NCBI GenBank assembly: GCA_030640585.1
Contig: DAOWIZ010000018.1
Location: 1-48,068 of the forward strand
DNA from: Thermoplasmata archaeon
GTDB taxonomy: Archaea; Thermoplasmatota; E2; DHVEG-1
Reading direction: 5' to 3'
Length of the DNA: 48,068 nucleotides
The position numbers were made by a program, and so were the translations under genes. Of the stretch, positions 10,826 through 30,100 are shown piece after piece (positions within the stretch are counted from its first letter, which is position 1; every line of letters begins with the position of its first letter). Under the pieces are notes generated by a model. It ran no database searches, was not told the DNA's origin, and saw nothing but the letters and a program-made list of their open reading frames with translations.

Positions 10826-11083
10826 ATGTTAGACCTAATTCTTGTCATCTTTTTCTGTATTATGGGTGTTATAACAGGTATTGCAACAGGCTTATTACCC
10901 GGCCTTCATGTAAATAACATAGCACTCATTCTACTATCTTTATCTGGTGCGATAATTGGGGTGTTTAGTTTTCTTTTTGAATATGGGATCTCTGAACAAT
11001 TCATTCTGTTATTGATTTGTGTTTATATCATATCCGTGTCAATCTCTCACACATTCCATGATGTAATCCCAACTACTTTCCTC
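10826..11083 (+). pseudogene. tctA: TctA-family (tripartite tricarboxylate transporter permease) 5' fragment, interrupted by the transposon
   Basis: G..TGLLPGLHVN and HTFHDVIPTTFL motifs. The frame terminates at a TAG inside the left terminal inverted repeat. Confidence 0.9.
11079..11083 (+). repeat. Left target-site duplication TCCTC
   Basis: Identical to 30096-30100; directly abuts the terminal inverted repeat. Confidence 0.92.
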
Positions 11084-11100
11084 CAGTAGTTCCGAATGTA
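11084..11100 (+). repeat. Left terminal inverted repeat CAGTAGTTCCGAA(tGTA)
   Basis: Reverse complement of 30079-30095 is CAGTAGTTCCGAAgGTA: 13/13 perfect, 16/17 overall. Confidence 0.92.
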
Positions 11101-11293: not shown

Positions 11294-12907
11294 TTAACCA
11301 CCTGGATCAATCACAATCAACAACGTGCCAAAATACTTGGCAGTAATAATATGTCCATCGCCTACTTTACCATGAAGATGCAACCATATCAAAACATCAG
11401 CGAGTATCCATAAGTTATATAATAACACTGAGAATAAGAAATAGAACAAACGGATATGATAATTCTTAGAAGTGGTTTTAGCACGAAAACTATGCTTTTT
11501 AACACGATAACTGGTTTCAATACCCCAGCGTTTGCTATACAATAAAAATAACCGTTCAAGCAGGTCAACATCATTATTCTCAAAATGCATATTGGTCGAA
11601 AACACTCGTTTTTCACCTGTTTTGTCCTTAGCAACGATTAGATTAAAACTACAGGTTTTCATCCTGAAGCCAGTAATGACAGACGGCGCAGGAGAAAGTT
11701 CCATAGCACGCCTTATCGCATAGTTTCTCTGACCAGGCATCAGCCATTTCAACCCGAAACCATTCAACACACCAATAGACTTCGAGTCAAAGAACCCTCG
11801 GTCAAGATAAACATGGTTGATCTTAATCCGTTTTTTAGCATAATAAACAAGCCTTGTAAACAGGTCTTCCTTGGTGCTTAGAGCATTAACGGGCAAAGCA
11901 AGAAGTGTAAACCGTTTACCATTATCTACAATATTCAATGTGATAAACTTATAGCATCTATCAGTGCCCCGCTCAGGCATTTTACCAACGACCATCAGTG
12001 TCTTTCTATTTCCATAGTAGAACCATTCTGTATAATCAATGGCAACATCGACACGTTTGCGAACATCAAACATATTAGCCTGGCGAGCCATCTCCCAGAC
12101 AATTTCAAACAAAGTCTCATACATGCGCTGCATATCTTTAATATTATCATATTTCTTCAAATGATACAACAGAGTATCTGCGTCAGGGCAACGTTTACGG
12201 TATTCCTTGTAAATCTTACTTCCGCTCTCTGCGAAATTCTGATTTAAGCCCAGATGTATCAAGAGGTCAATAAACATTTTCTTGTTGTAGATGCAGTTTT
12301 TACCAAGATTCAAATCTATAAAAGGAGTAAAACGCTTTTTAAACAAACGGCAAACATCTTTTGTCTGTATGTTTCTCTGAAGTCTCTGGTTGCGCTCTTT
12401 CGTGTCTTTCTTTGGTTTTTCAGGTTCTAAGGTTTTAATATCAAACAAAATCCCAAACTTCTCAGAAACCTCAATTATTTTATCAACTGTAAAATCAAGA
12501 AGTCTTTTTGTTTCTTCATCGAGAATATGATTAATAAAATAACTAACAGTTGTCTGGTCAGGAGTTACACTAAAGCCTAGTTTGTATTTATCGCCAGGGC
12601 GTCTTTTCAAATATCTGACAAGTTTTGTTTGAAACTTAATTCCTTTTAGTTTCTGGTATAAAACAAGATTAATCATAGATGTATAATCATATTTTATTTT
12701 ACGATATGTTTTTTCCTGAAAAATTGATGTATCAAAACTTTGGAGGTATTCGGCAACGGTCACTTTAGGTTGCTTTTTGAATAGCTCAAAGGTTTTATAA
12801 ATCTCCAGTTCTATGTTTCTTCTGGAGACACGCATTCTGCTTTGGCTCATGTGTTGTCTCCAGACCCCTTGAGAAGGACCAATTCTCTTGGGGTCATCCT
12901 TTTTCAA
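11294..12907 (-). CDS. DDE transposase, ISH3 family (IS4-like), with long N-terminal extension
   Basis: VAIDYT..FYYG, GTDRCYKF...GKRFTL, YLDRGFF, YSKRWGIETSYR..K (YREK motif), RLFYFLFSVLLYNLW. Start uncertain (TTG 12907 or ATG 12850). Confidence 0.9.
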   Translation of the reverse strand: MKKDDPKRIGPSQGVWRQHMSQSRMRVSRRNIELEIYKTFELFKKQPKVTVAEYLQSFDTSIFQEKTYRKIKYDYTSMINLVLYQKLKGIKFQTKLVRYLKRRPGDKYKLGFSVTPDQTTVSYFINHILDEETKRLLDFTVDKIIEVSEKFGILFDIKTLEPEKPKKDTKERNQRLQRNIQTKDVCRLFKKRFTPFIDLNLGKNCIYNKKMFIDLLIHLGLNQNFAESGSKIYKEYRKRCPDADTLLYHLKKYDNIKDMQRMYETLFEIVWEMARQANMFDVRKRVDVAIDYTEWFYYGNRKTLMVVGKMPERGTDRCYKFITLNIVDNGKRFTLLALPVNALSTKEDLFTRLVYYAKKRIKINHVYLDRGFFDSKSIGVLNGFGLKWLMPGQRNYAIRRAMELSPAPSVITGFRMKTCSFNLIVAKDKTGEKRVFSTNMHFENNDVDLLERLFLLYSKRWGIETSYRVKKHSFRAKTTSKNYHIRLFYFLFSVLLYNLWILADVLIWLHLHGKVGDGHIITAKYFGTLLIVIDPGG

Positions 12908-13058
12908 ACTTTGATTGTATTTTTCTAAAGTAGTTTGAAAATAAGGTTTAGATATGTTTCTGGAGTCATAGAGTTATACCACCCCCAAAGTGGGGGTTTT
13001 GGAATGAAAGTATCTTTTTTATTTCTTTCCCAAATCAACTGCATTTATCGCTACCTTA

Positions 13059-13175
13059 TTTCCTACCTATTTAACTACATCTACAATCTCATATATAAAC
13101 TTTTAGGTAGGAAAATTAAAAGTGTTAAGGGTAGTTAAAAAAGCAGTAAAAGTTATATAATTAAACTGCCATTTA
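13059..13175. promoter_or_regulatory. Divergent promoters with inverted repeats, between the transposase and the AbrB/methyltransferase genes
   Basis: Leftward TATA-like AAAAGTTTATATAT (minus strand, about 13091-13104) flanked by the 11-bp IR TTTCCTACCTA (13059-13069)/TAGGTAGGAAA (13104-13114). Rightward AAAAGTTATATAA (about 13148-13160) flanked by GCAGT/ACTGC. Confidence 0.5.
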
Positions 13176-13188
13176 ACAATTGATATAT

Positions 13189-13368
13189 ATGGGATTTAAA
13201 ACCACAATTGCTAAAGCTTCTACCATCTCAAATTCCTTTAGAACAACAGTACCAGCTGCAATAATAAACCAGTTCAATTTAAACGATGGGGATAAACTAG
13301 ATTGGGAACTAAAAGCAGAAAATGGTAACTTAATTGTAATTATAAAACCTGAGAAGAAGGAGATGTAG
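13189..13368 (+). CDS. AbrB/MazE/SpoVT-family DNA-binding protein
   Basis: SFRTTVPAAIINQFNLNDGDKLDW pattern; ATG at 13189. Confidence 0.85.
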   Translation: MGFKTTIAKASTISNSFRTTVPAAIINQFNLNDGDKLDWELKAENGNLIVIIKPEKKEM

Positions 13369-13375
13369 TGAAAGC

Positions 13376-14995: not shown

Positions 14996-14998
14996 AAA

Positions 14999-15922: not shown

Positions 15923-16015
15923 TTAAATAACAAATCAATAAGATGCATAAAAAACCTCCGTAAAAAAAAATTATATGAAGTGGGAGGACAATATAAAAAA
16001 TTGGTGTGTAAATTT

Positions 16016-16987: not shown

Positions 16988-16990
16988 CTA

Positions 16991-18070
16991 TTACTCACCA
17001 ATGGTAATTTTTTGGAAGTCAATATCAGGATCAATGTAGGAAGCCATTCGAGAAACTAATCTTCTAATTGCAGATCTAGCTTCTGATGGATTTTCAGAAT
17101 AAATAAATAATTCATCGTCATTAATAGTCAGTTGTAATGATTTCCTTTCTCTCAGATCTAAAATATTGGCTCTATCTGGCCCCAAAGGAATGCCTATGTA
17201 TCCATGTGCCCCTCCAGATGATGTGAACATATTAAGTATTGCTTCATTACGTTTTTCTATCGTTCCTTTAATTTTTTTTATTGAAGGCATTTTAATTTTT
17301 ACAATATCTTCAATTTGACGATAAGATACACCATCAATCACTGTTTTATGTGATTGTGAGAACCCATATGATTCATCCCATTTTCTTAAAAAACTAACAT
17401 ACTTACCTGTAATGAAAATAATTGATTTTGATAAACCACTACTAAATGAAATTCTCCCTTGATTTGTCATTTCAAATTTGATAAGATCTCCATCATTCCC
17501 CATTTCAATTCCGATTTTACGTGGATGGAGCGCATGCTGTTTTTCAAGCCGATTTATCACTTCTTTTGTTTTTCTTCCTCGTACTTGGACAGTAATTCCA
17601 TATCCTGAATATTCATTATGTGGTTGGAACTGGGTTCTTTCAATAACAATTTTCCCTCCGTCTTTAACAAAGATGCGTGTCAATTCATAAAATCGTTCTT
17701 TATTTAACCAAGGGATTCGAAGAGTAGGATGTTGTCGAAGGAATTGTTCAATTTTTCTTGTTCCATCTTCATCCTGTGTATGATAAACTACAACTCCCCA
17801 GTCCCATTCATCAAAATAAAATTCAAAATCCTTGGTTGAATAATAAAATTCTTTTTCTCCCTTAGTTTCAACTGGCTTTCGTTTTTCTTTCTCAAATATC
17901 GAATGATTTGGACTAAAAAAGGCAATATATACTTTGAGATTTTTCGCTCTTGCACCTTTTTCCCAATCAACTGATTTACTCAGTAATTCTTTTAGGTGCT
18001 CTGTTTTCATCAAAGAAACCTCTTTTTGAAATATGTAATCTGAGCGGCCAGTATAACTTTTTCTATGCAT
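16991..18070 (-). CDS. Hypothetical protein, no family recognised
   Basis: Long ORF in AT-rich DNA; start likely ATG 18070 or 18010. Confidence 0.65.
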   Translation of the reverse strand: MHRKSYTGRSDYIFQKEVSLMKTEHLKELLSKSVDWEKGARAKNLKVYIAFFSPNHSIFEKEKRKPVETKGEKEFYYSTKDFEFYFDEWDWGVVVYHTQDEDGTRKIEQFLRQHPTLRIPWLNKERFYELTRIFVKDGGKIVIERTQFQPHNEYSGYGITVQVRGRKTKEVINRLEKQHALHPRKIGIEMGNDGDLIKFEMTNQGRISFSSGLSKSIIFITGKYVSFLRKWDESYGFSQSHKTVIDGVSYRQIEDIVKIKMPSIKKIKGTIEKRNEAILNMFTSSGGAHGYIGIPLGPDRANILDLRERKSLQLTINDDELFIYSENPSEARSAIRRLVSRMASYIDPDIDFQKITIGE

Positions 18071-18089
18071 AAAATCAACTTCTTTATTA

Positions 18090-18178
18090 TACAAGTAATA
18101 CTACTTAAATTTTACTTGTATATTACTTGATATACAAAAAATTTAGCAATATACAAATAGCTTATATTTGATATACAA
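18090..18178. promoter_or_regulatory. Operator-like repeat cluster in a divergent intergenic region
   Basis: ATATACAA at 18130, 18149 and 18171 (TTGATATACAA twice), inverted copy TTGTATAT at 18116, and IR TACAAGTAA/TTACTTGTA. Confidence 0.55.
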
Positions 18179-18203
18179 TTGATGTGAGGAGAATAGCATA
18201 ACT

Positions 18204-18395
18204 ATGCCAAAAAAATCATCTAGTGTAAAAACAAAACCCGTACCAATAAGATTATCAGAACCCATGATTGAAGCAATTGACTTTGCAATAGAACTTGGCC
18301 AAGGCAATGATAGAAACGATGTCATCCGAACAGCTATTGCTAATTATTTAAGAGAGTTAAACGTGACAAATGAAATGAAAAAAAGAAAAGTTTAG
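18204..18395 (+). CDS. Ribbon-helix-helix (CopG-like) regulator
   Basis: VPIRLSEPMIEAID...G...RNDVIRTAIANYL; SD GAGGAG. Confidence 0.85.
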   Translation: MPKKSSSVKTKPVPIRLSEPMIEAIDFAIELGQGNDRNDVIRTAIANYLRELNVTNEMKKRKV

Positions 18396-19837
18396 TTTGC
18401 AATCGTATATAATTTTTCATGTAATTTTACCATTGCAATTGTATCTTGTTTACAATATTTTAATAGATTTTGTTTATGCTTTTCTATTTCTTTTTTATCA
18501 TACTTTTTTAACATCATATATGCAAAAATTGCACTTGCTGTTAACCCATCAGAAATATCAAATCCGTCATAAGAAAATTCTGGAATTAAAACGGGACAAG
18601 TTACTTTTACTGAAGTTTTACCATGAAATTCTGGATTGTAATAATTATTTCTAATTATTGCCTCTAAATCAACTAATCTTTCTAAAATCACGTCAAAATC
18701 TTTTTTTAGATCTAGATATAGACCTTTAAGATAGTTAATAATCCTTTTCTCAAAACTACTATAGACAATAATACTTCCTGCTTCTTCTAAATCCAATATT
18801 AACTTTTTTGCGAGGTCTTCCCTGTAATCTCCATCAGGATTTGATAAAAATTCAAAATGGTCAACTATATGCCCAGGTTTTGAACATTTATGAATTGAAT
18901 ATTGTGTTGGAATTTGTTCATAAGGCTTTGTGTCGGGTAGTAATGGCAAAGCTGTCTGATAAGTTTCAAAATCTAAATAAAAAGATGGCCATATTATTTT
19001 ATCTAAATCTTTTTTTAGATTTTTATCTATATGTTGTGTATTATTTTTTACGCAGTCCTTCACTAAATTCTGTTTTGCAGATAATGAAAAACCATCAGGA
19101 ATGTCTTCAATAAATGTAACTCCCGACTGTAATAAAGTATTAAATTTTGTTTTTCCTAACCGAGGAATGTCAAAAAGATGATTTTTATATTTTTTCCCTA
19201 TACAGTCATTGAATATTTTACAATATTTACATTCATATCTGAGAGATGAAGTAGGTTTTTCATCAGTACTGGTAATATTATCTATTTGATCCCATAACCG
19301 ATCAAATTCTTTTACTTTTTCAATAACATCATCTGTATGATCAATTTCTCTAAAAAGATCTTTATCATCCATGCCCAGACGATAATCAGGAGAAATTAAA
19401 AATAAAGATATTTTTGATATATCAAATCCTGATTTATTCATTACCATTGTTGTATATGCCATATCATCAATATATTCATCTTTATCATTCATACCAGATT
19501 TTACTTCGATCATTTTCCATTTGTTATCTATTAACTCTAATATATCTGCTTTAGCTGCATAATTATCAACTAAAAAGGCGCTTTCAAAAAGAGTTGGCAT
19601 TATTCTCTTGTTTAACATATCACTTGTTTTTTTTGCATTTTCTTCAAAATTAGGTGCATATATAATCGCTCCATTTGGATAAAGATTTTGAGCTTTTTTC
19701 CCAATAGTCCTACCTTGCTCCATTAGAAATCTATCAGAGATAGTTAATGGTTTGGTAAATCCCTTGTTTCTTATAATCCATCCCAATGTTGGACAATTTA
19801 TTGCATTTAGAAATACTGTTTTATTAACATTATTCAA
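18392..19837 (-). CDS. DUF2779-type protein (RecB/Cas4-like nuclease plus RNase H-like domain)
   Basis: CP..W, AKADIL...IEVKS, C.YC....C, FYLDFET..PYEQIP.QYS.H, YSSFEK, YCKQDT. Likely start TTG 19837 after GGAGGG. Confidence 0.8.
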   Translation of the reverse strand: MNNVNKTVFLNAINCPTLGWIIRNKGFTKPLTISDRFLMEQGRTIGKKAQNLYPNGAIIYAPNFEENAKKTSDMLNKRIMPTLFESAFLVDNYAAKADILELIDNKWKMIEVKSGMNDKDEYIDDMAYTTMVMNKSGFDISKISLFLISPDYRLGMDDKDLFREIDHTDDVIEKVKEFDRLWDQIDNITSTDEKPTSSLRYECKYCKIFNDCIGKKYKNHLFDIPRLGKTKFNTLLQSGVTFIEDIPDGFSLSAKQNLVKDCVKNNTQHIDKNLKKDLDKIIWPSFYLDFETYQTALPLLPDTKPYEQIPTQYSIHKCSKPGHIVDHFEFLSNPDGDYREDLAKKLILDLEEAGSIIVYSSFEKRIINYLKGLYLDLKKDFDVILERLVDLEAIIRNNYYNPEFHGKTSVKVTCPVLIPEFSYDGFDISDGLTASAIFAYMMLKKYDKKEIEKHKQNLLKYCKQDTIAMVKLHEKLYTIAN

Positions 19838-19920
19838 TTTTTCTTCCCTCCATTCATATATGTAAATAAAAGATGCTTTTAAATAACATTTTAAGATATG
19901 AAACATGGAGTTTTTTAATT

Positions 19921-20493
19921 ATGGGTAAAAAAGTATTTTGGTTAGATGTAGAAACTACGGGTTTAGATCCTGAACAGCAAGATATTATCCAACTTGCTTT
20001 TTTAATAGAAATCGATGGCGAAATCGCTGAAAGCCAAAATATGTTAATGCAACCTTTTAATTATAATGAAGTGCAACAAGACGCTCTTGATGTTCATGGT
20101 AGAACCATTGAAGAAATAAAAACATATCCTGATCCTCGTAAAACATATACTGATTTAATTTCTGTCCTTGAAAAATATGTAGATAGATATAATCCTTCAG
20201 ATAAGTTTCATCCAGCTGGCTATAATGCCAGATTTGACATGGATTTTTTAAGACAGTTCTTTATTAAAAATGGAGACGTTTATTATGGATCTTGGTTTAA
20301 TTATAAAGCAATTGACCCGATGTCTTTATTACACATACTTGATGGAATTGGAAGTGTTTCAATAGAGAATTATAAACTAGAAACTGTATGTAAACACTTT
20401 GATATATGTCATGATGCTCATGATGCATTAAGTGATATAACTGCAACAAGAGAACTTACAAAACTTATTTGTTCAAAATATATTAAAGGTTGA
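19921..20493 (+). CDS. DEDDh 3'-5' exonuclease (DnaQ-like)
   Basis: WLDVETTGLDP, AGYNARFD, AHDALSDI; SD GGAG before ATG 19921. Confidence 0.92.
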   Translation: MGKKVFWLDVETTGLDPEQQDIIQLAFLIEIDGEIAESQNMLMQPFNYNEVQQDALDVHGRTIEEIKTYPDPRKTYTDLISVLEKYVDRYNPSDKFHPAGYNARFDMDFLRQFFIKNGDVYYGSWFNYKAIDPMSLLHILDGIGSVSIENYKLETVCKHFDICHDAHDALSDITATRELTKLICSKYIKG

Positions 20494-20514
20494 ATTTAGT
20501 ATTGTTTTGCATTA

Positions 20515-22350
20515 TTAAAAATCGTAGAGAGAGTCAACATAGAATTTATGATGAAACGAAGAAATATTTTTAGATAAAAAAGCTAAATAATTAGAATAAT
20601 ATTTTTCGATATACTCGCAATACATTTTTCCCTCAGGCGCAATCTCGAATTGATAGTAGGTATGATTTCTTTGATTAAAATAATCTAAAAGACTATGCCT
20701 CTTTTCAGGATCATAATCACGAATTGATCTTGATTTTTCTTCAATTGAAATTTTTAGCAATCCAATAGAACCGAGCTTCATTATGTCTTCAAATAATTCA
20801 GGAGAATATAGAAAGTCAAAATCCATATTAAATTTATAAGCAAAGGAGTTTTGATAATTTTTCTGAACCCACTCTATCATCTCATAAATCTTTGTAATAA
20901 ATATCATAGGCACCTGAAAGTCCCCATGTACTCTCAAATATTCATAAAAAAACAATAGCAGCAATTCGAGTTGATATGATTTTTTAATTCTTTCTTTATC
21001 TATTTTTTTTCCTATAATGTTTTTTATATCACACCAATTTTTCTTAATTAACTTATTGCATGATTTTATATTATTATCTTTTTGGCAGAAAAAATATAGA
21101 GAGCCGCTACCCAATATTTCCATAGTGAGACTAGCCGCTAGCTTAGATTCATCATATAAAAAACGATGTGTGTCGCATATTTTAACTCGTAGGGATTTCG
21201 GTATCCCCCGCAATGCCGTACTTCCTATGTAGATTCTTTGTTTTTGAATTATTTTATTTACTTCTTTCTCGACATCGCTAATTATTGAAGGATTTTGGTT
21301 TAACAATTCTATGTACAATTTAATGTCTGGAGTTATAGCATGGGCTTTCAAATCGCATGTGCAACAAAAAACTCCTCCCCCTCGCAATTCATCTATTAAT
21401 TTTTTAGCTTCGTTAGTACCTTTATTTTTGATAAAATTTAGCAAATCATTATCGTCATATTCCCAAAAGAATTTATCCAGTTCTTGTTCTACTTCCTTTT
21501 TACTACTTGTGTCTAAAAGTTTTTTAAGCGTATATTCTAAAGCTTTTATTAGCATTATATTAGCAGCTACATTTTTTGGATGATTTATTATATTTGAATA
21601 ATAATGATACCTAGATATTAGAAAAGCTTCTCCAAGATTTATAGAAACTATTTCATCAAAAGATCTGTTTTCACCTTTTTTACCAATAACTAATTTATCC
21701 TTATCTCTTGATACATTTTCCAATATATGTTCCAAATTAAAACCAATAAAATTAATTCCAGTATGTAAACCATCACGAATAAGATAATCTATTCTATCTG
21801 CATCAATTTCTCCAGATATTATGCTGGATAGAAATTTATCTTCTTCGCTTAAACTCTTTTTCTTACCTGTTGCAATATTACCAATATTCGTAAAAAAAGA
21901 ATTTGATTTTTCGGTTATCCCTGCCTCTTTCAAAGCTTCTTTCACAACTGATTTATTACCCAGATTTGCAATTATGTTTCTCGTATACGCTTCATGCTTC
22001 CTGTATCGAGGTTGCGCTATTTTCTCCATTCTTTTAAGCCCAAGCTCTATGGTATGAGAAAAGGCAGAATGTCCTATATCATGCAATAGGCCAGCTAAGC
22101 GAATCTTTTGTCGATGCGTTTCATTAAATTCATTTTTAAACCTTTCAAAAATCAAATCAGCTATATGCATAGTACCTAATGAATGCTCAAATCTTGTATG
22201 CAATGCTCCTGGAAAAACAACGCTGGCAACGCCCAACTGTTTTATTCTTTTTAATCTTTGAAACTGTGGTAAATCTATCAATGTTTTTTCTAGCTTTGTT
22301 AATCTGATATACTTGTGTACGGGGTCAGGTATAGATGAGTCTAATTCCAT
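20515..22350 (-). CDS. SAMHD1/YdhJ-like HD phosphohydrolase with C-terminal wHTH (YwgA/Panacea-like) extension
   Basis: DPVHKYI, FQRLKRIKQLG, HTRFEHSLG, LLHDIGH, DADRIDYLIRD; C-terminal YKF......YSPELFEDIMKL...G. Confidence 0.85.
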   Translation of the reverse strand: MELDSSIPDPVHKYIRLTKLEKTLIDLPQFQRLKRIKQLGVASVVFPGALHTRFEHSLGTMHIADLIFERFKNEFNETHRQKIRLAGLLHDIGHSAFSHTIELGLKRMEKIAQPRYRKHEAYTRNIIANLGNKSVVKEALKEAGITEKSNSFFTNIGNIATGKKKSLSEEDKFLSSIISGEIDADRIDYLIRDGLHTGINFIGFNLEHILENVSRDKDKLVIGKKGENRSFDEIVSINLGEAFLISRYHYYSNIINHPKNVAANIMLIKALEYTLKKLLDTSSKKEVEQELDKFFWEYDDNDLLNFIKNKGTNEAKKLIDELRGGGVFCCTCDLKAHAITPDIKLYIELLNQNPSIISDVEKEVNKIIQKQRIYIGSTALRGIPKSLRVKICDTHRFLYDESKLAASLTMEILGSGSLYFFCQKDNNIKSCNKLIKKNWCDIKNIIGKKIDKERIKKSYQLELLLLFFYEYLRVHGDFQVPMIFITKIYEMIEWVQKNYQNSFAYKFNMDFDFLYSPELFEDIMKLGSIGLLKISIEEKSRSIRDYDPEKRHSLLDYFNQRNHTYYQFEIAPEGKMYCEYIEKYYSNYLAFLSKNISSFHHKFYVDSLYDF

Positions 22351-22421
22351 AAATAAACAAATCTAATAAATTGATATAACTATATCGATAGTTGTCTTTT
22401 TTACTCTCCCCACCAAAACCC

Positions 22422-22446
22422 AGGGTTGTTTTTTTAAAGAAACAAA
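22422..22446 (+). repeat. Motif A copy 1 (AGGGTTG-N-TTTTTTAAAG-RR-ACAA)
   Basis: AGGGTTGTTTTTTTAAAGAAACAAA. Confidence 0.8.
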
Positions 22447-22513
22447 AGATTTATAAACTCTAATACTATTGCCCTCTACAATGTTAAGAAATAAAGAATA
22501 AAAGAGGAATAAG

Positions 22514-22942
22514 ATGACTAAAATAATAAGAATATCAGATGAAGTATGGAACGTATTGCGGGATATGGGGAAGACAGGAGACTCGTTTGATGATGTACTA
22601 AGAAAAATATTAAAGGTTGAATCTGAGAATCAAAAAGGCCAAGACCTTACATGTAGAGGTGGCAGAATCCCGCATGGAACAAAAGTAACAGCTACATATA
22701 ACAGAGAGAGATATGAAGCTGAAATTAAAAATGGTAAATTTCGATATAATGGTAAAGCATACAATGGACCATCTCCAGCAGCTATGAGCATTACAAATAG
22801 CTCAGTTAATGGATGGTCATTTTGGGGAATAGAAAAAGAAGGAAAATGGAAACCACTAGTACATTTCAGAAAACATGTTTTTAACCAAAAAAATAAAAGT
22901 AATTCATGGAAAAAATATAAGAGAGATAATGCCAAAATTTAA
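22514..22942 (+). CDS. RHH/antitoxin-like N-terminus fused to a RAMA/DUF4357-like modified-DNA reader domain
   Basis: KIIRISDEVWNVL...SFDDVLRKIL followed by YNGKAYNGPSPAA...VNGWSFW. Confidence 0.75.
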   Translation: MTKIIRISDEVWNVLRDMGKTGDSFDDVLRKILKVESENQKGQDLTCRGGRIPHGTKVTATYNRERYEAEIKNGKFRYNGKAYNGPSPAAMSITNSSVNGWSFWGIEKEGKWKPLVHFRKHVFNQKNKSNSWKKYKRDNAKI

Positions 22943-22992
22943 AGAATATCTTGAATTAAAATTAAAAAAATAATTACTGTTTAAAATCTTGT

Positions 22993-23013
22993 TTTTCATC
23001 ATCTTTTTATCCT
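22993..23013 (+). repeat. Motif B copy 1
   Basis: TTTTCATCATCTTTTTATCCT, 20/21 identical to 24277-24297. Confidence 0.7.
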
Positions 23014-23387
23014 ATAGTTTTCAATTCTTTATTGGCTTGAAAATTCCTCCTATCTAAACAACTTGTGCAATGAAGTTTAGAACGTGAATAATCAATAGGG
23101 TTTTTACCGCATTGCCTACAAAGCCCTTTAGCCACCCTTCTCTTTTCGTATATTTTGTTCATTTTCTCTCTTTTTTTCAGGCAGGCAGGACAATAGCGAG
23201 TCCATCCCTCAGGTCTTGGTTTGCCACAGTCATAGCAAAGACCTGCCTTCAGCCGTCTCCTATGCCATTCTCTGTGGTATTTTCTTTCACAGTCTTTGCA
23301 GTAACTTGACAACTTGTCTTTTTTCGAGTTATCATTATAAAACTGCGGTGCAGGCAGAAATCGATGACATCTAAAGCATTCCTTCAT
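23007..23387 (-). CDS. Basic multi-zinc-finger protein
   Basis: Six CxxC pairs; the N-terminal KECFRC...F......D.L.SYCKDC resembles phage HNH-associated Zn fingers. Confidence 0.7.
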   Translation of the reverse strand: MKECFRCHRFLPAPQFYNDNSKKDKLSSYCKDCERKYHREWHRRRLKAGLCYDCGKPRPEGWTRYCPACLKKREKMNKIYEKRRVAKGLCRQCGKNPIDYSRSKLHCTSCLDRRNFQANKELKTIG

Positions 23388-23436
23388 TGAACAACACGCT
23401 TACTCTTATCTGTTGATATACTAATTAAAGTTTCTT

Positions 23437-23461
23437 AGGGTTGGTTTTTTAAAGGGACAAC
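23437..23461 (+). repeat. Motif A copy 2
   Basis: AGGGTTGGTTTTTTAAAGGGACAAC. Confidence 0.8.
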
Positions 23462-23474
23462 TATTGTTTATTAA

Positions 23475-23972
23475 ATGATTAAAATGTATAAAAAACAATC
23501 TTTTGAAGATATGATGACATCTGAAAAAGAGGTTGCAGATTACCTGTCTCATCTTGGTATCTTTTGGGAGTATGAACGACCTGTTTTTGTATATGATGAT
23601 AAAGGCAGGCCAAGAGTTTGGACTCCTGATTTTTATCTACCTCAATTAGGTATATATGTTGAGGTCTGCGGTTCTAAAAATTTCAATTATGAATATAGGG
23701 AAAAAGTGTACAAAAACAATGGTATTTTTACTGTATTTATCCACTGGTATAAAGATAAACACAAATGGAAGAAATTTCTTGGCAAAAGATTACAAGAAAT
23801 TGAAAAATATTGGAAAAATAAAGTAGATATGATTACTAATGCTATTTTAACAGAAAAAAAAGTAGAATATCAAAAAGTTGAAAAAGGCTCTTGCCCTTAT
23901 TGTGGTTGTGATGTTTATCTCGGAAGTGAAAATACTGCCAAAATGTGTGGTTTATGTGGGGAAATATGGTAA
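23475..23972 (+). CDS. Small PD-(D/E)XK nuclease-like protein with C-terminal Zn ribbon
   Basis: SEKEVADYL...WEYE...WTPDFYLPQLGIYVEVCG; CPYC...CGLC. Confidence 0.75.
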   Translation: MIKMYKKQSFEDMMTSEKEVADYLSHLGIFWEYERPVFVYDDKGRPRVWTPDFYLPQLGIYVEVCGSKNFNYEYREKVYKNNGIFTVFIHWYKDKHKWKKFLGKRLQEIEKYWKNKVDMITNAILTEKKVEYQKVEKGSCPYCGCDVYLGSENTAKMCGLCGEIW

Positions 23973-24271
23973 AGAATGATATTGAAGAATTTATTTCAAA
24001 GTTTATTGGACAGGTTAAATCAGGTATACCAAAAGGTTGTGTGTTAAGTAGTAACTTTGATTTTGATCTTTCTGTTGTGACAACGAAAAAAAACAAAGGT
24101 AAATTAGACATACTCTTAGCAACTATGGAGCACACTTCCGATACAAAGCAAGTTCACAGATTAAAATTTTCAATCGCCGACAAAAAATCTCGTGAGGAAA
24201 GCACTCAATATTTAAATAAAGTGATACAAAATTTCGCATCAGAACTATCTAAATTAGATCAATCAAAATAA
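23966..24271 (+). CDS. Trypco2-like small protein
   Basis: DIEEFI...QVKSG...FDFDLSV...G.L.I...VHRLKFSI pattern; ATG 23966 overlaps the upstream gene. Confidence 0.55.
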   Translation: MVKNDIEEFISKFIGQVKSGIPKGCVLSSNFDFDLSVVTTKKNKGKLDILLATMEHTSDTKQVHRLKFSIADKKSREESTQYLNKVIQNFASELSKLDQSK

Positions 24272-24276
24272 CCTCA

Positions 24277-24297
24277 TTTTCAACATCTTTTTATCCT
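24277..24297 (+). repeat. Motif B copy 2
   Basis: TTTTCAACATCTTTTTATCCT. Confidence 0.7.
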
Positions 24298-24377
24298 CTT
24301 AATAAACCATTTCTACATGGGTAAAATATTTATCATAGGAGATATATAATAACATGTAGGTTTTAGACTCGATAAAT

Positions 24378-24815
24378 ATGACTAACGAATCAAAAATTGT
24401 AAACGGAATACAATACAAAAAATGCAGTAAATGTAAACAATTCAAACCACTACAACAGTTTTACAAAATAAAGCGTGGTACTTTTGGTGTAAAGAGTGAA
24501 TGCAAGAAATGTAGTATAATAAGATTTAATGACTGGATAGAAAATAACCGTTCTAAATATCTAAAAACAGGACGAATGTATGCTAGCAACAGATACAGAA
24601 ATGACCCCGTGCATAGGGAACGGGCAAAACAGATGAGTCGTGAATGGAGAAAAAACAACCCTGATTACCTAAGAAATTGGAAACTTAAAAACCCTGAACA
24701 GCAAAGAGAATGGGTAAAGGCCAATCCTGATTATCATAGAGAACGGCAGCGGATATTTAGAAAGGAAAACCCAGATTATTACAGAAATCTACGAGCAATG
24801 AAGCAGAAGGTGTGA
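24378..24815 (+). CDS. Zn-finger protein with W/F-x-K-x-NP(D/E) repeats
   Basis: KKCSKCKQFKPLQQFY...SECKKC; WRKNNPDY, WKLKNPEQ, WVKANPDY, FRKENPDY. Confidence 0.75.
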   Translation: MTNESKIVNGIQYKKCSKCKQFKPLQQFYKIKRGTFGVKSECKKCSIIRFNDWIENNRSKYLKTGRMYASNRYRNDPVHRERAKQMSREWRKNNPDYLRNWKLKNPEQQREWVKANPDYHRERQRIFRKENPDYYRNLRAMKQKV

Positions 24816-24829
24816 GTTTGCCAACAGAT

Positions 24830-24854
24830 AGGGTTGATTTTTTAAAGAAACAAC
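24830..24854 (+). repeat. Motif A copy 3
   Basis: AGGGTTGATTTTTTAAAGAAACAAC. Confidence 0.8.
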
Positions 24855-24886
24855 TGTTATAAAATATTATTTTAAGGTAGTAAAAG

Positions 24887-25039
24887 ATGAAAGAAGAATA
24901 TGCGGATAGACCATGTCCTGCTTGTGGGAATATGATTCCTGCAAAAAAGAAAGTTTGCCCATCATGTGAGCTTAGGGTTGGAAGAGTTAATAAAAATTCT
25001 AAAGCACCAGGTTCTTATAGGGGTTATATAAAAAAGTGA
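24887..25039 (+). CDS. 50-aa zinc-ribbon microprotein (not in the ORF track)
   Basis: MKEEYADRPCPACGNMIPAKKKVCPSCELRVG...; lies downstream of motif A copy 3. Confidence 0.65.
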   Translation: MKEEYADRPCPACGNMIPAKKKVCPSCELRVGRVNKNSKAPGSYRGYIKK

Positions 25040-25041
25040 AA

Positions 25042-26127
25042 TTAAGTTATTAAATTTTTTATCGTTTCTAAACTGTTCTCAATATCGTCCTTAATTCTCT
25101 CAAGATTTGTCCTAATATACGAACTAGCGTTGTCAATCTGAGTTAACTTCGACTCAAAACTTTTAAACATAAAAAGCTTTGATTTCATATCCTCAATTTC
25201 TTTTTGAATCTCTCCAATTGGGATCTCTTTTTTATCATCTTTTATTGTAACAAAAAGTCTAGCAACTCTAAATGCAAAATATAGCCCATATTCATCAAAA
25301 GAAGTAACAATATATTTTTTTGTTATTTTCACAGGACGAAGAGCTGAAGGTATTTGTTGTTGGTTCTTAAACAAAAATATACCAAATTTAGATCCTCTGT
25401 TCTTTATCGCGTCATTAACTTCATCTATAGTTCTTTTATGAGAATATGCTGGACTATCTTTACATTCAACTATGATTCTTTTTTTATTATCGCTATCTAT
25501 ATCTATATTAATATCACCAATTTTATTGGTCTTTCCTAATCTATCGCCGACATATTCAACTTTATCTTCATAGGGTGAACAAATTTTCTCAATTTGTTCC
25601 AGGACAGTATCCTCAAATTTCCCTCCTTTCAAAGTAGTTTTTGAAACAATTTCTTCTTTTACTTCTTCTTTTAATAATTCATCTCTCAACTCTTTAATTT
25701 TCTCAAAAACCTCTTCCTTTAGTTTCTTGATAGGTGAACCTTCTTCATAAGGGCTTAATAAATCACCAATTTTTCCTTTTTTTAAATCAAAATATTGTTC
25801 AAACATAAGACGAAATTTACCCATACAGCTAGCATTATTCTCCATATCAAACGTTTTTTCTATCATATCCTGTATATTTTCGTTTTGGTATTCAAATTGT
25901 TTTAAAAGTTTGTTAAATTCTTTCTCGATATAATCAACGTTTTCAGTTAAAGATAGATTCCTCAAACCTATTGTACCCATAATAACTGCTTTTTTAATGA
26001 ACTCTTCTCTTCTATCTGGCTTTATATCTTTTAAAATTTTATATGCATTAATATCATCGACTTCTAAATTATGAATTATTATTTTTTCATCTCGTAGCTC
26101 GATGTTTTTATCCGATCCAGAACTCAT
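25042..26127 (-). CDS. Coiled-coil PD-(D/E)XK nuclease-like protein (DUF2130/RmuC-like architecture)
   Basis: KGGKFE...KIGDINI...IIVECKD flanked by long coiled-coil segments. Confidence 0.7.
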   Translation of the reverse strand: MSSGSDKNIELRDEKIIIHNLEVDDINAYKILKDIKPDRREEFIKKAVIMGTIGLRNLSLTENVDYIEKEFNKLLKQFEYQNENIQDMIEKTFDMENNASCMGKFRLMFEQYFDLKKGKIGDLLSPYEEGSPIKKLKEEVFEKIKELRDELLKEEVKEEIVSKTTLKGGKFEDTVLEQIEKICSPYEDKVEYVGDRLGKTNKIGDINIDIDSDNKKRIIVECKDSPAYSHKRTIDEVNDAIKNRGSKFGIFLFKNQQQIPSALRPVKITKKYIVTSFDEYGLYFAFRVARLFVTIKDDKKEIPIGEIQKEIEDMKSKLFMFKSFESKLTQIDNASSYIRTNLERIKDDIENSLETIKNLIT

Positions 26128-26819
26128 TTTCTTTCCCCCAATTCTTCTTTAATAATTTTCCTAAGTTTCTTTTCAAAAACTTCAGCGAAGATTTCAGCTT
26201 TTTTACGCGTTTCAAACTCTAATTCTTCTTCATATAATTGTTGATATTTCTCAGTATTTTCTGGCTCTGTTTCTTCTTTATCATAAATTTGTAAAGTCTC
26301 TGGAAGTTTTTCAATATCATTAAAAATTTTTTCTATATTTATTTTAGGGCAATAGTCTATCTCTAAAGAATATCTATCCTTGATATAATCAATAATCTTA
26401 TTTTTATCTAATCGAAATTTATTATCTTCTTTTTTTTCTAAAAACCCTGCCAATGAATTTATTGTAAACCTGCTTGTATACATGTTATTAATTTCCTTAT
26501 TTATATCAAATAATCGATCAAGAGGCTCTTTACCTAACCATATATGCCTACAGACACCATTGCAGATTAATTTATAATCACAAAAGAAAACATCTTTAAA
26601 ATCTCTAATCGGCACTTCTTTTTCATCAACAAGAGACTTGCTTGCTTTCCAACGGCCTACAATATCTACAAGTCGTTCTAAATCCTTATTTACATCTTTG
26701 AAGTGAACAAAGTAAAAGCTGTTATCTATATAATATTCATGATCTTCAGCAATCTTAATCGCATCAGATAAACTTGGACTACTTGTTTTAGATGAAAATC
26801 TAATAATGAATTTTGACAT
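26124..26819 (-). CDS. Hypothetical protein
   Basis: ATGA-coupled to the downstream nuclease; C...C...C..H cluster; likely start ATG 26819. Confidence 0.6.
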   Translation of the reverse strand: MSKFIIRFSSKTSSPSLSDAIKIAEDHEYYIDNSFYFVHFKDVNKDLERLVDIVGRWKASKSLVDEKEVPIRDFKDVFFCDYKLICNGVCRHIWLGKEPLDRLFDINKEINNMYTSRFTINSLAGFLEKKEDNKFRLDKNKIIDYIKDRYSLEIDYCPKINIEKIFNDIEKLPETLQIYDKEETEPENTEKYQQLYEEELEFETRKKAEIFAEVFEKKLRKIIKEELGERK

Positions 26820-26948
26820 AAAATAAATATAAATGTCTTTTCTAATAAAACTTAGTATCAAGTTAAAAATTATATTTTAATATTTTACAACCTCTTAAAA
26901 TCTTGAAATTGAATAGATTTTTATACTACCAATTTCGCTTTTTCATTA

Positions 26949-27680
26949 ATGACAAGAATAAAGATGGTCCAAGAGCAGGTTGACGAAGCGCTTAAACTTC
27001 TTAAGCAAGGTTACACACCTAAACAACTTGCAGAGAAATATGGAGTGCATAGGTCCGTTATTTATAGAAGGGTTAAACAACCCAATGTTGCGAAGGACAT
27101 TCCAGTTAAAATTAAAAACAAAGTTATCAAAGCAATCAAAGACGGGCATACAAAAGCAGAAGCAGCACAGATGTATGGATTGAATATAGGAACTGTATAT
27201 AACTTTACTAAAGGCATTGCAGAAGGGCATAGATCACAAGGTAACCACATCATTAGAAAGAACGGGATAAAACTCCTAAATAGACTGATGACAGATGGTT
27301 ACCTTATCTCAGATTTCAACGTACCTGTTGTTAGAAATCTTCAGAGCAAATTTCCAATAATAAGAACAGCTCGTTATAAGGAGAAAACTTTTTTTTATCT
27401 ACCTGGCCGTGAGGAGGAGACAATTGAGGCTTTTTTCCGTGAGAAACCAGATAGAATAATTAGCTATGTGTCAATAGAAGAATTATCTTATCTTTTAGGT
27501 GTGAAGTTTTCCAGGAAAACCACGATGACACTTGTAAGAAAATATAAAGGCAAACATAAGAGTTATTGGAGAAGCAGACGTCTTATACAGAGGAGTATTT
27601 TTGACTGGGTAGATGATAACCCATTTAAAAACAATATTGAAACAAGTTTTAGATTAATGCCAAAAAAAGGAGAATGGTGA
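26949..27680 (+). CDS. Tandem helix-turn-helix protein with unknown C-terminal domain
   Basis: GYTPKQLAEKYGVHRSVIYR and GHTKAEAAQMYGLNIGTVYN. Confidence 0.75.
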   Translation: MTRIKMVQEQVDEALKLLKQGYTPKQLAEKYGVHRSVIYRRVKQPNVAKDIPVKIKNKVIKAIKDGHTKAEAAQMYGLNIGTVYNFTKGIAEGHRSQGNHIIRKNGIKLLNRLMTDGYLISDFNVPVVRNLQSKFPIIRTARYKEKTFFYLPGREEETIEAFFREKPDRIISYVSIEELSYLLGVKFSRKTTMTLVRKYKGKHKSYWRSRRLIQRSIFDWVDDNPFKNNIETSFRLMPKKGEW

Positions 27681-27722
27681 TAAGTAGTGGTAGTAAAAAA
27701 TAATTTTACTTATCCCCTTTTA

Positions 27723-28385
27723 CTATCTTAATTTTATCCCCCTAAAAAATCGTGCATAAATAAACATACTAATAAAACCAATAATGAAGGGGGCAATCCC
27801 TCCTAATAAAACAAATAGCCATGAGGCGGGGAAATCACCAAAAAATATTGCAAATCTATCTAGATTAGATATTACAGCTCCAAATATTGAAAAGAATATG
27901 CCTGTCCCTAGCACAAAATACATACTATTTTTCTTAGATTTTTTTGACTGCTCACTTATTATAGCTAATTCTTTTAAATCTTTACTCTCAAGATTTCTAA
28001 TATCATCTAACTGGTTGTCTTTAACAGATATCGCATCCTTTGGTGTTATTTCATCTAACTTATTGGAAATTTCTAAATATTTCAATTTAAAATTTGAATC
28101 ATCTATAAATTTGAACCAAAAAATACTATGTGATTTTCTAAGTATTTCAAGTCTCTTTTCACAGATATACGTATACATATTTAAAATAATTATATCCATG
28201 TTTTGATCGAGTAAATACCAATCTCCATCATCTTTAATGATTTCATCTAAAAATTCGTTTTTAAATTCATTATATTGTCCTTCAAAGACATATTCTTCTC
28301 CAAATTCCCTTGTAATTCTTGAATTTAACGTTTTATACTCTTTTTCGAATTTTTTAAATTTTAAAGTGATTTCTTTTTTATTCAT
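27723..28385 (-). CDS. Hypothetical protein with two C-terminal TM helices
   Basis: Likely start ATG 28385, immediately after the upstream stop; two hydrophobic segments at the C-terminus. Confidence 0.65.
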   Translation of the reverse strand: MNKKEITLKFKKFEKEYKTLNSRITREFGEEYVFEGQYNEFKNEFLDEIIKDDGDWYLLDQNMDIIILNMYTYICEKRLEILRKSHSIFWFKFIDDSNFKLKYLEISNKLDEITPKDAISVKDNQLDDIRNLESKDLKELAIISEQSKKSKKNSMYFVLGTGIFFSIFGAVISNLDRFAIFFGDFPASWLFVLLGGIAPFIIGFISMFIYARFFRGIKLR

Positions 28386-28386
28386 T

Positions 28387-28542
28387 TCAACCAAAAAGTT
28401 CCTCAAACCAACCTTTTTTCTTATTCTTTGGTTTTGGCTTATAAACACCTAGAATTTGCCCTTTTTTACCTTTTGAAGCATTTTTCTGTCTTAATCTATA
28501 ATACTTTCTTGTCGTAGGATTATAAATACGTTTTTTTGGCAT
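28387..28542 (-). CDS. Very basic 51-aa microprotein
   Basis: MPKKRIYNPTTRKYYRLRQK...GWFEELFG; stop codon 1 bp from the next ATG. Confidence 0.5.
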   Translation of the reverse strand: MPKKRIYNPTTRKYYRLRQKNASKGKKGQILGVYKPKPKNKKKGWFEELFG

Positions 28543-28807
28543 TATTACATTTTTCAAATACCACATCCTATTATTTACTTTCCTATTTAATTTCTTGTTA
28601 ATTCTGGTTAACTGATAAAAAAATCTATTCAAAAACCACCTCTTGACTGCATTATTTCATCCCCCCTCAAATTTAGGATCTTAACTCACTAGGAAGAGGC
28701 ATACTACTTTTACCCATCTCCCCTCTGTTAGAGATTCGTTCTTTCTCATTTTTTTACCTTAGCATCTACTGATATAGTTTAATCTTGCTTTTCATTACGC
28801 CTTTTTT

Positions 28808-28963
28808 ATGACAAATAAGAAACAAATATCTTTCCGTTTGTCAAAAGAACTAGACGACTGGGTAACAGCCCAAATAGAGTCAGGACGATTTGAATCCTGG
28901 ACTGAGGCTGTTGAACAGGCAGTAGTTCTTTTGCAGGAAAGATTAGGCGAAAAAAAACAATAG
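28808..28963 (+). CDS. 51-aa RHH (ParD/CopG-like) protein (not in the ORF track)
   Basis: MTNKKQISFRLSKELDDWVTAQIESGRFESWTEAVEQAVVLLQER. Confidence 0.8.
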   Translation: MTNKKQISFRLSKELDDWVTAQIESGRFESWTEAVEQAVVLLQERLGEKKQ

Positions 28964-29018
28964 ATATTTTATTTGTAATATCTAAGCGAAAGACTGTTTT
29001 TTAAAAATTAATTGAAGG

Positions 29019-29047
29019 AAGCAAATTCATCAAACGAGAATTTGCTT
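29019..29047. terminator. Hairpin between convergent genes
   Basis: AAGCAAATTC-9 nt-GAATTTGCTT followed by T-rich sequence. Confidence 0.4.
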
Positions 29048-29085
29048 TCTCTCTGATTTTTTGCTTTTGTGAACTAGTGTTTTTC

Positions 29086-29436
29086 TTATTCAGAGGGCAA
29101 TCGATAAAAAATATCTTTACGTGACAAACCTTCTACCTCAATATCTACTCCACCGAACCCATTATCTATAACAATTTCTATTTCTGATCCGCATTTATCA
29201 CAAAGATAGATCTCCTCTGTATATACTATACTTTCTTCATGATTTTCTCCACCCATATTAGGTGGATTAACCATGATTTTGTCAGATTCAAAAGATTCCC
29301 CGCATTTTGGACATTTACATTTCACTTCTATTGGTTCTTGTTCAATAGTGGCGATTCCTCCAAGCCGAGAAAAACTCCCATCTGAGTTATCGTTTTTACT
29401 TAATGGAAACCATTCTTTCATTAATTTTTCCTCCAA
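29086..29436 (-). CDS. Zinc-ribbon protein
   Basis: CPKCG...CDKCG; acidic. Confidence 0.65.
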   Translation of the reverse strand: MEEKLMKEWFPLSKNDNSDGSFSRLGGIATIEQEPIEVKCKCPKCGESFESDKIMVNPPNMGGENHEESIVYTEEIYLCDKCGSEIEIVIDNGFGGVDIEVEGLSRKDIFYRLPSE

Positions 29437-29521
29437 TTATTATATCAAGCATGTCCATCTATATTAAATTACTTATTACATTGTTGTAAAAGGATAATTA
29501 AATGATACAAATGAGCATTAG

Positions 29522-29995
29522 TTAATCAAGTCTTATCTGATGATCTGAAAAAACATCCCCATCTTTATTGGTTAATCTAACAATAGCATATTTGCAATCT
29601 GTAGCATGGATGTACTTGGGTAACAATCTTTTCTTGTTGTTACAATAGCCATACAAATTTACATGAGGTTTCCCATTACGATGCGTCTTTTTTTCATTAG
29701 GATCAAATTCAACACCAATCCAAAAAACAACATCATCACCTTCATTTTGAGGGATTATTGCACTACCACTTCCATTACATTGATGGTTGCTACTAGGATG
29801 AACAAAATATCCCTCTTCATTAACTCCATCTCTATATTCTACATCATTAAGATCAAAATCTTCTCCTTTTAGATAGTAATCACTGATATATTTTTTATTT
29901 GCAGTAAAATTTATAGATTTTTTTTCATCCCATGTTTGGCCTGAACAAATATGAACTCCAATCACTGATTCACACATAATACCACTCTTTCTCAT
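29522..29995 (-). CDS. Hypothetical protein, possibly frameshifted at the 5' end
   Basis: 157-aa ORF; an SD-preceded ATG at 30035 opens a different frame that overlaps its start. Confidence 0.55.
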   Translation of the reverse strand: MRKSGIMCESVIGVHICSGQTWDEKKSINFTANKKYISDYYLKGEDFDLNDVEYRDGVNEEGYFVHPSSNHQCNGSGSAIIPQNEGDDVVFWIGVEFDPNEKKTHRNGKPHVNLYGYCNNKKRLLPKYIHATDCKYAIVRLTNKDGDVFSDHQIRLD

Positions 29996-30078
29996 TTTCT
30001 AAATCATTTTCATCAATATTATTGTTTGTGCTCATAATCTTTTCCCTCCATATAAAATTTCATTCCTTCGTAGATTTT

Positions 30079-30095
30079 TACCTTCGGAACTACTG
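30079..30095 (-). repeat. Right terminal inverted repeat
   Basis: TACCTTCGGAACTACTG; core 30083-30095 is the perfect inverse of 11084-11096. Confidence 0.92.
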
Positions 30096-30100
30096 TCCTC
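30096..30100 (+). repeat. Right target-site duplication TCCTC
   Basis: Identical to 11079-11083. Confidence 0.92.

Follow-up and report, generated by a model that had tools for sequence, protein, structure and literature searches.

The window analysed in this study, a stretch of 48,068 nt from a Thermoplasmata archaeon (GenBank assembly GCA_030640585.1, contig DAOWIZ010000018.1), contains between positions 22,422 and 24,854 an array of small genes separated by two repeated motifs, A and B, at which gene content is exchanged among related loci of one family of Thermoplasmatota. This family-wide cassette-shuffling architecture is real, and it constitutes a form of linker-mediated modular shuffling that resembles the one known in T4-like phages. 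With somewhat better than even confidence, the arrays, which occur in ISH3-like transposons and as chromosomal relics, are built and shuffled by short-homology recombination between promoter-like linkers. The host, from a family of uncultured sediment archaea, likely belongs to the MBG-D/DHVEG-1 group, for which PMC9585477 uses the name Thermoprofundales.

A cassette array and its two linker motifs

Motif A occurs three times in the window (22422, 23437, and 24830) and motif B twice (22993 and 24277), all on the plus strand and all where the sequence-only reading, an earlier annotation made without database searches, had placed them; no further copies of either motif were found in the window at two to three mismatches. 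These repeats are real and far above chance, with 100 shuffles giving a mean of 0.00 copies of A and 0.03 copies of B. Calls of open reading frames (ORFs) and domains agree with the gene order proposed earlier, A-[RHH-RAMA]-B-[zinc finger]-A-[nuclease, Trypco2-like]-B-[zinc finger]-A-[zinc ribbon], and the features of the array are as follows.

22389..22422, plus strand: degenerate B0 and CCCCACCAAAACCC spacer, forming a B-A linker with A1 (sequence; linker matches at other loci)
22423..22460, plus strand: A1, GGRTTG-TTTTTTAAAG core (TATA-like) and tail; predicted promoter and exchange point (sequence comparison)
22514..22942, plus strand: cassette gene, RHH (VapB-like) and RAMA (domains; 3' end together with B1 83% common with locus L182)
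22993..23013, plus strand: B1 (ATCC form), putatively copied from the HTH-gene promoter, its TATA altered; point of exchange and possible terminator
23007..23387, minus strand: zinc-finger ORF filling the B1-to-A2 slot, with its stop codon inside B1 (ORF and phrog matches)
23438..23474, plus strand: A2 core with divergent tail (motif scan, locus comparison)
23475..23972, plus strand: cassette gene, PD-(D/E)XK-like nuclease (domain searches)
23945..24271, plus strand: cassette gene with a weak Trypco2 lead (Pfam, atlas)
24277..24297, plus strand: B2 (ATCC form), 6 nt past a stop codon (motif scan)
24378..24815, plus strand: second zinc-finger ORF, which occupies the B2-to-A3 slot and has C-terminal repeats of 11 aa (phrog matches)
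24831..24870, plus strand: A3 core and tail; ATG at A position 57, inside the family peak of 54-58 (motif scan, geometry)
24887..25039, plus strand: cassette gene, 50-aa zinc ribbon (domain search)

Domain searches supported the labels of the RHH(VapB)-RAMA gene and of the PD-(D/E)XK-like nuclease. The Trypco2-like label is a weak lead, since there was no Pfam Trypco2 match, while an atlas match of 0.89 pointed to a cluster with Trypco2 in 11% of its members. Each of the two B-to-A slots contains a CxxC zinc-finger ORF, one on either strand, as had been noted, and both ORFs match endonuclease-VII/HNH N-terminal families (phrog_1035, phrog_2255, and phrog_5558); with an identity of 30% over 61 aa, the pair did not arise by recent duplication. 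Three tandem 33-nt (11-aa) repeats lie inside the second of these ORFs, at 24642-24740. In addition, A1 is preceded by a degenerate B and a CCCCACCAAAACCC spacer that the sequence-only reading overlooked. Positions 22396-22459 resemble the B-A linkers of other loci at 78-89%, and the array therefore begins B0-A1. The 25-bp palindrome previously described as part of A (a GTTG-N14-CAA dyad) proved peculiar to the three copies in the window, with the dyad present in only 14 of the 267 A sites of the family, and it was accordingly rejected as a binding or recombination site.

The family consensus was derived from 232 loci (1.3 Mb, partly redundant). Motif A reads GGRTTGGTTTTTTAAAG-AAANAGATGTTATGAAA, the part GGRTTGGTTTTTTAAAG being followed by a tail, AAANAGATGTTATGAAATTGT, and motif B reads TTTTCAACA(T/C)CTTTTTATCCT; in relatives B and a following A are often united in a single linker, with a spacer that is 4-32 nt long and frequently CCCACAAAAACC. 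Joints with A only, joints with B only, and B-to-A slots holding whole genes are all common among the loci. Site orientation is uniform within an array in nearly all maps, and the longest array (L157) has nine A-type sites in 5.6 kb. A third linker type, in which a second conserved tail (ACCTGGTAGAAAC-like) follows GGTTTTT in place of AAAG, was seen in L012, L016, L045, L075, L087, and L181, and other intergenic repeats of 100-140 bp occur in dozens of copies beside B sites (L033:8850-8960 and L031:9240-9380).

The motifs are restricted to one family. The exact A core is present in 33 of the 107 further family genomes compared to 0 of 89 genomes from ten other families of the class, and with one mismatch it was found in 39 of the 108 family genomes; B with one mismatch was found in 13 of 36 family genomes compared to 0 of 24 others. 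Of 38 genome contigs matching the composite motif, 35 came from Thermoplasmata, Thermoplasmatales, or Thermoplasmatota. A position weight matrix (PWM) of A gave seven matches in the window's own genome and none with a reversed control, so A is not a general host promoter, a possibility that the sequence-only reading had singled out as damaging to its proposals. Weaker or single motif copies lie on four other contigs of the same genome (C22, C58, C36, and C41); two of these are decayed islets with A, B, and tails (G000 C22:4300-5210 and C58:696-880), and the B on C58 runs on with ATAGTTTT(T)CAATT, as B1 of the window does. A viral origin was rejected: IMG/VR gave 0 matches for the composite and full-A patterns, and its two B-only matches were unrelated. 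A comparison to Rfam gave no match at E ≤ 0.1. The possibility that A is a short coding sequence (readable as VGFLKK) was also rejected, given that its third codon positions do not vary and that stop codons are frequent.

Exchange of gene content at the motifs

Homology between related loci breaks at A and B, the window's own cassettes included, which bears out the shuffling half of the sequence-only reading. Pairs drawn from 296 distinct A sites (identical sites collapsed) had only upstream DNA in common in 136 cases, only downstream DNA in 331, and both in 4, while pairs drawn from 271 B sites gave 145, 126, and 3, respectively. With ORFs called mechanically and comparisons that are not independent, the neighboring gene was kept at 25 of 1109 motif junctions compared to 285 of 1490 motif-free junctions nearby and 129 of 378 farther away. 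Cargo breakpoints in sibling elements sit at the motifs, and 28% of 2464 block ends fell within 20 nt of a motif, compared to 5.7% expected. Within the window, the unit formed by the first zinc-finger ORF and A2 recurs in L006, L057, and L062, each time with different DNA after the core (four downstream neighbors in all), and the 3' end of the RHH-RAMA gene with B1 recurs in L182 at 83%, again with different DNA downstream.

Crossovers were mapped from 307 recent ends of blocks at least 90% identical, of which 111 lie at motifs. Blocks shared downstream begin at B positions ≤13 (14 of 15) and at A positions ≤9 (33 of 49), while blocks shared upstream stop most often just past the cores, at A positions 17-22 (13 of 20) and B positions 21-26 (11 of 27), the remaining B ends being mostly earlier, at mismatches. 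The resulting brackets define two zones, the B core TTTTTATCC and the A core TTTTTAAAG (the T5A cores). Exchange is not confined to these zones: among pairs that strongly share the downstream gene, 29 of 116 have tails ≤65% identical, which puts the exchange at the start codon or within the tail, and a small number of tails that depart from the consensus stand before different genes. Additionally, an intact HTH promoter and leader is joined, precisely at its ATG, to 6 of 296 A sites, and in L308 the HTH leader is joined to B through the common sequence TTTTTCAATC. The presence of several zones and of joints at microhomologies therefore favors homology-driven exchange.

The commonest cargo is transcription machinery. 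Recurrent ORFs encode Alba (16), AsnC/Lrp (11), TrmB/MarR (10), TBP (10), TFB (8), and cold-shock proteins (7), with NYN and EarA recurring as well. Since basal factors are moved with their own predicted promoters, gene regulation could be rewired in this way. Additional TBP, TFB, and Alba genes, in some cases accompanied by ribosomal protein S17e, travel within arrays or next to them and are often reversed (L047, L052, L061, L069, L137, L144, L146, and L185).

Promoter-like linkers and possible routes of recombination

In host genes the TATA peak lies at -32/-31 relative to the start codon. The transposon that carries the array (see below) encodes, close to its right end, an HTH protein designated HTH243.

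26918..26948, plus strand: putative leaderless HTH-gene promoter, with TTTTTATA at -31 (family version equals B with intact TATA)
26949..27680, plus strand: HTH243, an HTH-HTH-winged-helix protein encoded close to the right transposon end (homology, model)

HTH243 genes are preceded by TTTTCAACA(T/C)CTTT(A/T)TATAC and then 22 nt to the ATG; this is B with an intact TATA at -31, and B thus matches the HTH-gene promoter. An ORF starts 30-32 nt downstream of 12 of the 29 B sites with intact TATA compared to 0 of 211 ATCC-type B sites, which travel with the upstream gene and lie a median of 46 nt past stop codons. The B copies therefore appear to derive from the HTH-gene promoter, having lost its TATA (TTTTTATA to TTTTTATCC), and the ATCC type may terminate transcription after stop codons. 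At A, starts led by a Shine-Dalgarno (SD) sequence peak at positions 54-58. As judged from its sequence, A is probably a TATA promoter with a start site near position 41, which would give each cassette its own expression, and its spacing agrees with the positions of TATA and the promoter proximal element (PPE) described for archaea in PMC5316973.

The sequence-only reading had also suggested that the motifs form a shared operator overlapping TATA boxes. This idea stands insofar as A and B both hold TATA-box geometry; however, a pure regulon leaves the travel of B with its upstream gene unexplained. In the broader form of this explanation, the motifs are purely regulatory (a promoter class and an HTH243 operator), unrelated illegitimate events do the shuffling, and selection keeps intergenic breakpoints beside promoters. 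Such a process would fit the promoter geometry of A and B, their co-occurrence with HTH243, and the general loss of synteny in genus g9, but it is improbable given that neighbors are kept approximately 9-fold less at motif junctions than at nearby motif-free ones, that ATCC-type B tracks the upstream gene rather than the gene it would regulate, and that near-identical linkers stand on unrelated genes.

HTH243 has homologues in at least 265 clusters, one of them from an MBG-D single-cell genome. Close homologues occur in 21 of the 108 family genomes, 20 of which are A-positive, compared to A in 19 of the 87 others, a difference inflated by the non-independence of related genomes. In all 13 loci with A upstream of the HTH gene, the orientations agree, and arrays of relatives point toward this gene. 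The structural model (pLDDT 77.5) comprises two HTH units and a winged helix, with no match to a catalytic fold; Foldseek gave no match at E ≤ 0.001, and the best VIA Z, 6.3, was to winged-helix and Myb-like domains. A recombinase role for HTH243 was set aside on the strength of this model, and the protein may instead bind the AACATCTTTTT box, which is common in inverted form to B and the tail. Remnants of HTH 3' ends and stacked right terminal inverted repeats (TIRs) were also observed, which fits accretion around the HTH gene. In L061:12960-13607, L092:914-1609, L289, and L293, the right TIR contains the end of another HTH subtype, which is distant from HTH243 (22-35% identity), and window positions 28690-28771 and 30040-30095 look like relics of the end of such a gene.

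Taken together, A and B are best explained as repeated promoter-like linkers at the joints between small gene cassettes of one Thermoplasmatota family. Cassettes would be inserted, deleted, and re-ordered by short-homology recombination between linker copies, likely by host enzymes. B copies would arise from the HTH-gene promoter, lose the TATA, and end up behind stop codons. Exchange between sibling elements would use the conserved T5A cores and, on occasion, other microhomologies, so that cargo is concatenated and shuffled upstream of the HTH gene, and the transposase would move the whole array.

Several observations weigh against this short-homology explanation. The identical cores are 9-17 nt long, far below the 104 bp used by Int-pTN3 in the experiments of PMC5495485, and ordinary homologous recombination may be inefficient on cores of this length. 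The other 196 of the 307 recent block ends lie away from motifs, and in genus g9 gene order between congeners is broken almost gene by gene across the genome; part of the shuffling is therefore general. The frequency of B within 80 nt of A (173 of 293 A sites) is an overestimate, as most loci were fetched by the B-A composite pattern, and many arrays have no TIR or HTH gene inside the fetched DNA. No clean pair of empty and filled sites was found for any one cassette, the search among four G085 loci and five congeners having been unsuccessful because flanking synteny is lost. Most mapped crossovers concentrate in the two T5A cores, and among the loci no convincing A-B hybrid core, as a candidate empty site, was found; a site-specific system would produce the same picture and keeps some probability. 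Finally, B-left and the A tail are inverted repeats of each other, though imperfect ones (AACATCTTTTT / AAAGAGATGTT), as might be expected of a site bound by a protein. In assembled contigs of four sequencing runs (85% likeness), which cannot show circles, the only B-A joints were attributable to other loci.

The foremost alternative, considered unlikely though to be taken seriously, is that A and B are two classes of site (cores TTTTTAAAG and TTTTTATCC) for a trans-acting recombinase, possibly recruited by HTH243, with promoter function built in. The crossover brackets centered on both cores point in this direction, as do the retention of TTTTTAAAG in both tail-only and core-only sites, the near invariance of the A core across genera, and the inverted AACATCTTTTT box carried by A and B. 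Tyrosine recombinases are encoded in 100 of the 108 family genomes, with two in the window's own genome, and action in trans is conceivable. Nevertheless, only 4 tyrosine-recombinase genes were found among 89 ORFs scanned, and no such gene was detected in another 128 ORFs lying no more than 1.8 kb from a motif (from 176 selected, the rest being duplicates, already scanned, longer than 700 aa, or left out by hand), and no dedicated recombinase acting on A, as the idea of a gene-capture mechanism had implied, is consistently linked to the motifs. HTH243 matches only HTH and winged-helix domains, exchanges also occur in tails and ATG microhomologies, and spacer length is free. The IntI profile TIGR02249 matched 0 of 108 genomes, with control genomes giving no match either, and the scores of the four nearby integrases, 26-65 bits, lie below the cut-off of 265. 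If a trans-acting recombinase guided by the HTH protein or by TATA-bound factors did act at two TATA-derived site classes, which is likewise doubtful, this would be an undescribed integron-like system of sediment archaea, in which self-expressing cassettes (TBP, TFB, Alba, Lrp, TrmB, and cold-shock) are assembled and spread between genera by a tctA-targeting ISH3-like transposon.

It is also possible, at a low probability, that each A-gene-B unit is a non-autonomous mini-transposon with inverted ends (TGGTTTTT...AAAAACCA), inserted side by side by a DDE enzyme, the spacer being a target remnant or the product of adjacent deletion. In composite linkers, the downstream gene is accompanied by the initial bases of A and the upstream gene by part of the spacer, many spacers contain AAAAACCA, the complement of TGGTTTTT, and A often directly follows a gene end without B. 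Against this, the upstream gene and the A core are retained while downstream DNA changes, crossovers fall inside the B core, and many other spacers have no AAAAACCA. None of the joints contains the element's own TIR, and an isolated unit flanked by a target duplication was not seen among the loci.

Related systems and the transposon carrying the array

The closest parallel is provided by the PeSL (promoter-early stem-loop) cassettes of the T4-like phages RB49 and phi1 (PMC2839356; PMC4122927). Both systems have repeated composite regulatory linkers (promoter, likely terminator, and SD) before small unrelated ORFs, genes are inserted, deleted, and replaced at the linkers, and a dedicated recombinase is not identified in either. 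By sequence geometry, the arrays have the repeated promoter motif before small variable ORFs, and gene gain, loss, and replacement at the motif are observed. In contrast, the linkers have T-tracts and no strong GC stem-loop, where PeSLs have a stable stem-loop terminator, and rather than a Sigma70-type promoter in a T4-like phage genome, they contain an archaeal TATA-based element and stand in cellular chromosomes and ISH3-like transposons, not in phages (see the IMG/VR result above). In addition, the archaeal linker consists of two halves that can separate and have an entire gene between them, one half copying the promoter of the element's own HTH gene, and mini-circles and promoter and terminator activity are reported for PeSLs, while the linkers described here are known from sequence data. 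These linkers work like PeSLs without being members of that class. The 2010 PeSL paper states that there was as yet no evidence for such shuffling in cellular organisms (PMC2839356), and open-access papers, supplements excluded, yielded no description of the motif or system, nor of such shuffling in archaea. Promoter-linker shuffling now appears to occur in the chromosomes and transposons of a widespread family of sediment archaea. Furthermore, the cassette-boundary sequence has a traceable origin, apparently the promoter of a transposon gene, which bears on how gene cassettes arise.

Integrons and CALINs, including archaeal ones, share with these arrays the same-direction series of small cassettes and a repeated site, often without an adjacent integrase (10.1101/2022.02.06.479319). 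The B-spacer-A linker could accordingly be an attC-like single-stranded hairpin, as direct-orientation arrays of small genes and an imperfect inverted repeat with a variable loop might suggest. This reading is highly improbable and was rejected, because B and the adjacent tail do not covary (8.27 of 11 pairs compared to 8.24 ± 0.04 permuted) and the linker folds weakly (mean minimum free energy -5.5 kcal/mol, mean z -1.0, 26% below z -2, for 120 of 169 sites). Moreover, crossovers fall at the T5A cores and not at GTT, and in contrast to integron cassettes each cassette has its own promoter-like linker. In pdif modules (XerC/D), two alternating site types bound gene modules, with dif a 28-bp site of 11-6-11 architecture in alternating orientation. 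The arrays likewise have two site types, but the geometry of A is not that of B, either type can be followed by another copy of itself (A-A and B-B), and the 28-bp 11-6-11 architecture is missing from their consensus, as the scarcity of the A dyad also shows. Int-pTN3 of Thermococcales offers a precedent for homology-driven rearrangement in archaea outside RadA; however, it requires approximately 100 bp of homology in the account of PMC5495485, and no such integrase is tied to these arrays.

The array of the window sits in a 19-kb element (11084-30095) that splits tctA and has 13-bp TIRs, a 5-bp TCCTC target-site duplication (TSD), and an ISH3-like transposase. A domain search showed the genes of the window to be archaeal (Cdc6, CDC48, and geranylgeranyl reductases). 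The features of the element outside the array are as follows.

10826..11083, plus strand: interrupted tctA, 5' half, ending in the left TSD (TCCTC, 11079-11083) (Pfam TctA 1-63)
11084..11099, plus strand: left TIR, CAGTAGTTCCGAA..., of the 19-kb element (sequence)
11294..12907, minus strand: DDE transposase, ISH3-like, 537 aa, facing out to the left end (Pfam DDE_Tnp_1 and DUF772; NF033541)
28756..28771, minus strand: inner right-end TIR, apparently a relic of a nested or earlier element end (sequence)
30080..30100, minus strand: right TIR (to 30095), then TSD TCCTC (30096-30100), followed by the 3' half of tctA (sequence)

Short TIRs and a target duplication are traits of the ISH3 family, and both are present among the elements, the 5-bp duplication being TCCTC in the window and TGCTG in L309 and L310. 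The transposase scored 149.8 bits against NF033541 (ISH3), below the cut-off of 225 though still its best match, and for this reason it is termed ISH3-like. The elements agree with the family (NF033541; PMC13343696) in this best match. Short TIRs starting with CAG and the 5-bp duplication are further points of agreement, and the elements differ in having a 537-aa transposase under the cut-off, cargo of up to 19 kb, a terminal HTH gene, and repeated insertion at the tctA site. Sibling elements follow the same plan of a left TIR, an outward-facing transposase, cargo with B and A sites, an HTH gene, and a right TIR.

An ISH3-like element occupies the same position of tctA, before the GAP codons of TFLGAP, at nine loci in different genomes and in both orientations (the window, L005/L307, L054, L294, L295, L296, L301, L306, and L313), although these loci were fetched for other reasons. 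This recurrence suggests a DDE transposon with a fixed target gene. In L313 the element is reduced to a miniature of 637 bp that likewise has the TCCTC duplication, a back-to-back arrangement with 5 bp in between occurs in L295, L311, and L312, and the 13-bp TIR CAGTAGTTCCGAA was found in 80 of the 108 family genomes. Elsewhere in the element of the window (13376-15922), a wHTH-fused N6/N4 methyltransferase is convergent with a NotI-like endonuclease and adjoins an AbrB/MazE-like gene (13180-13368); the methyltransferase and endonuclease are likely restriction-modification cargo.

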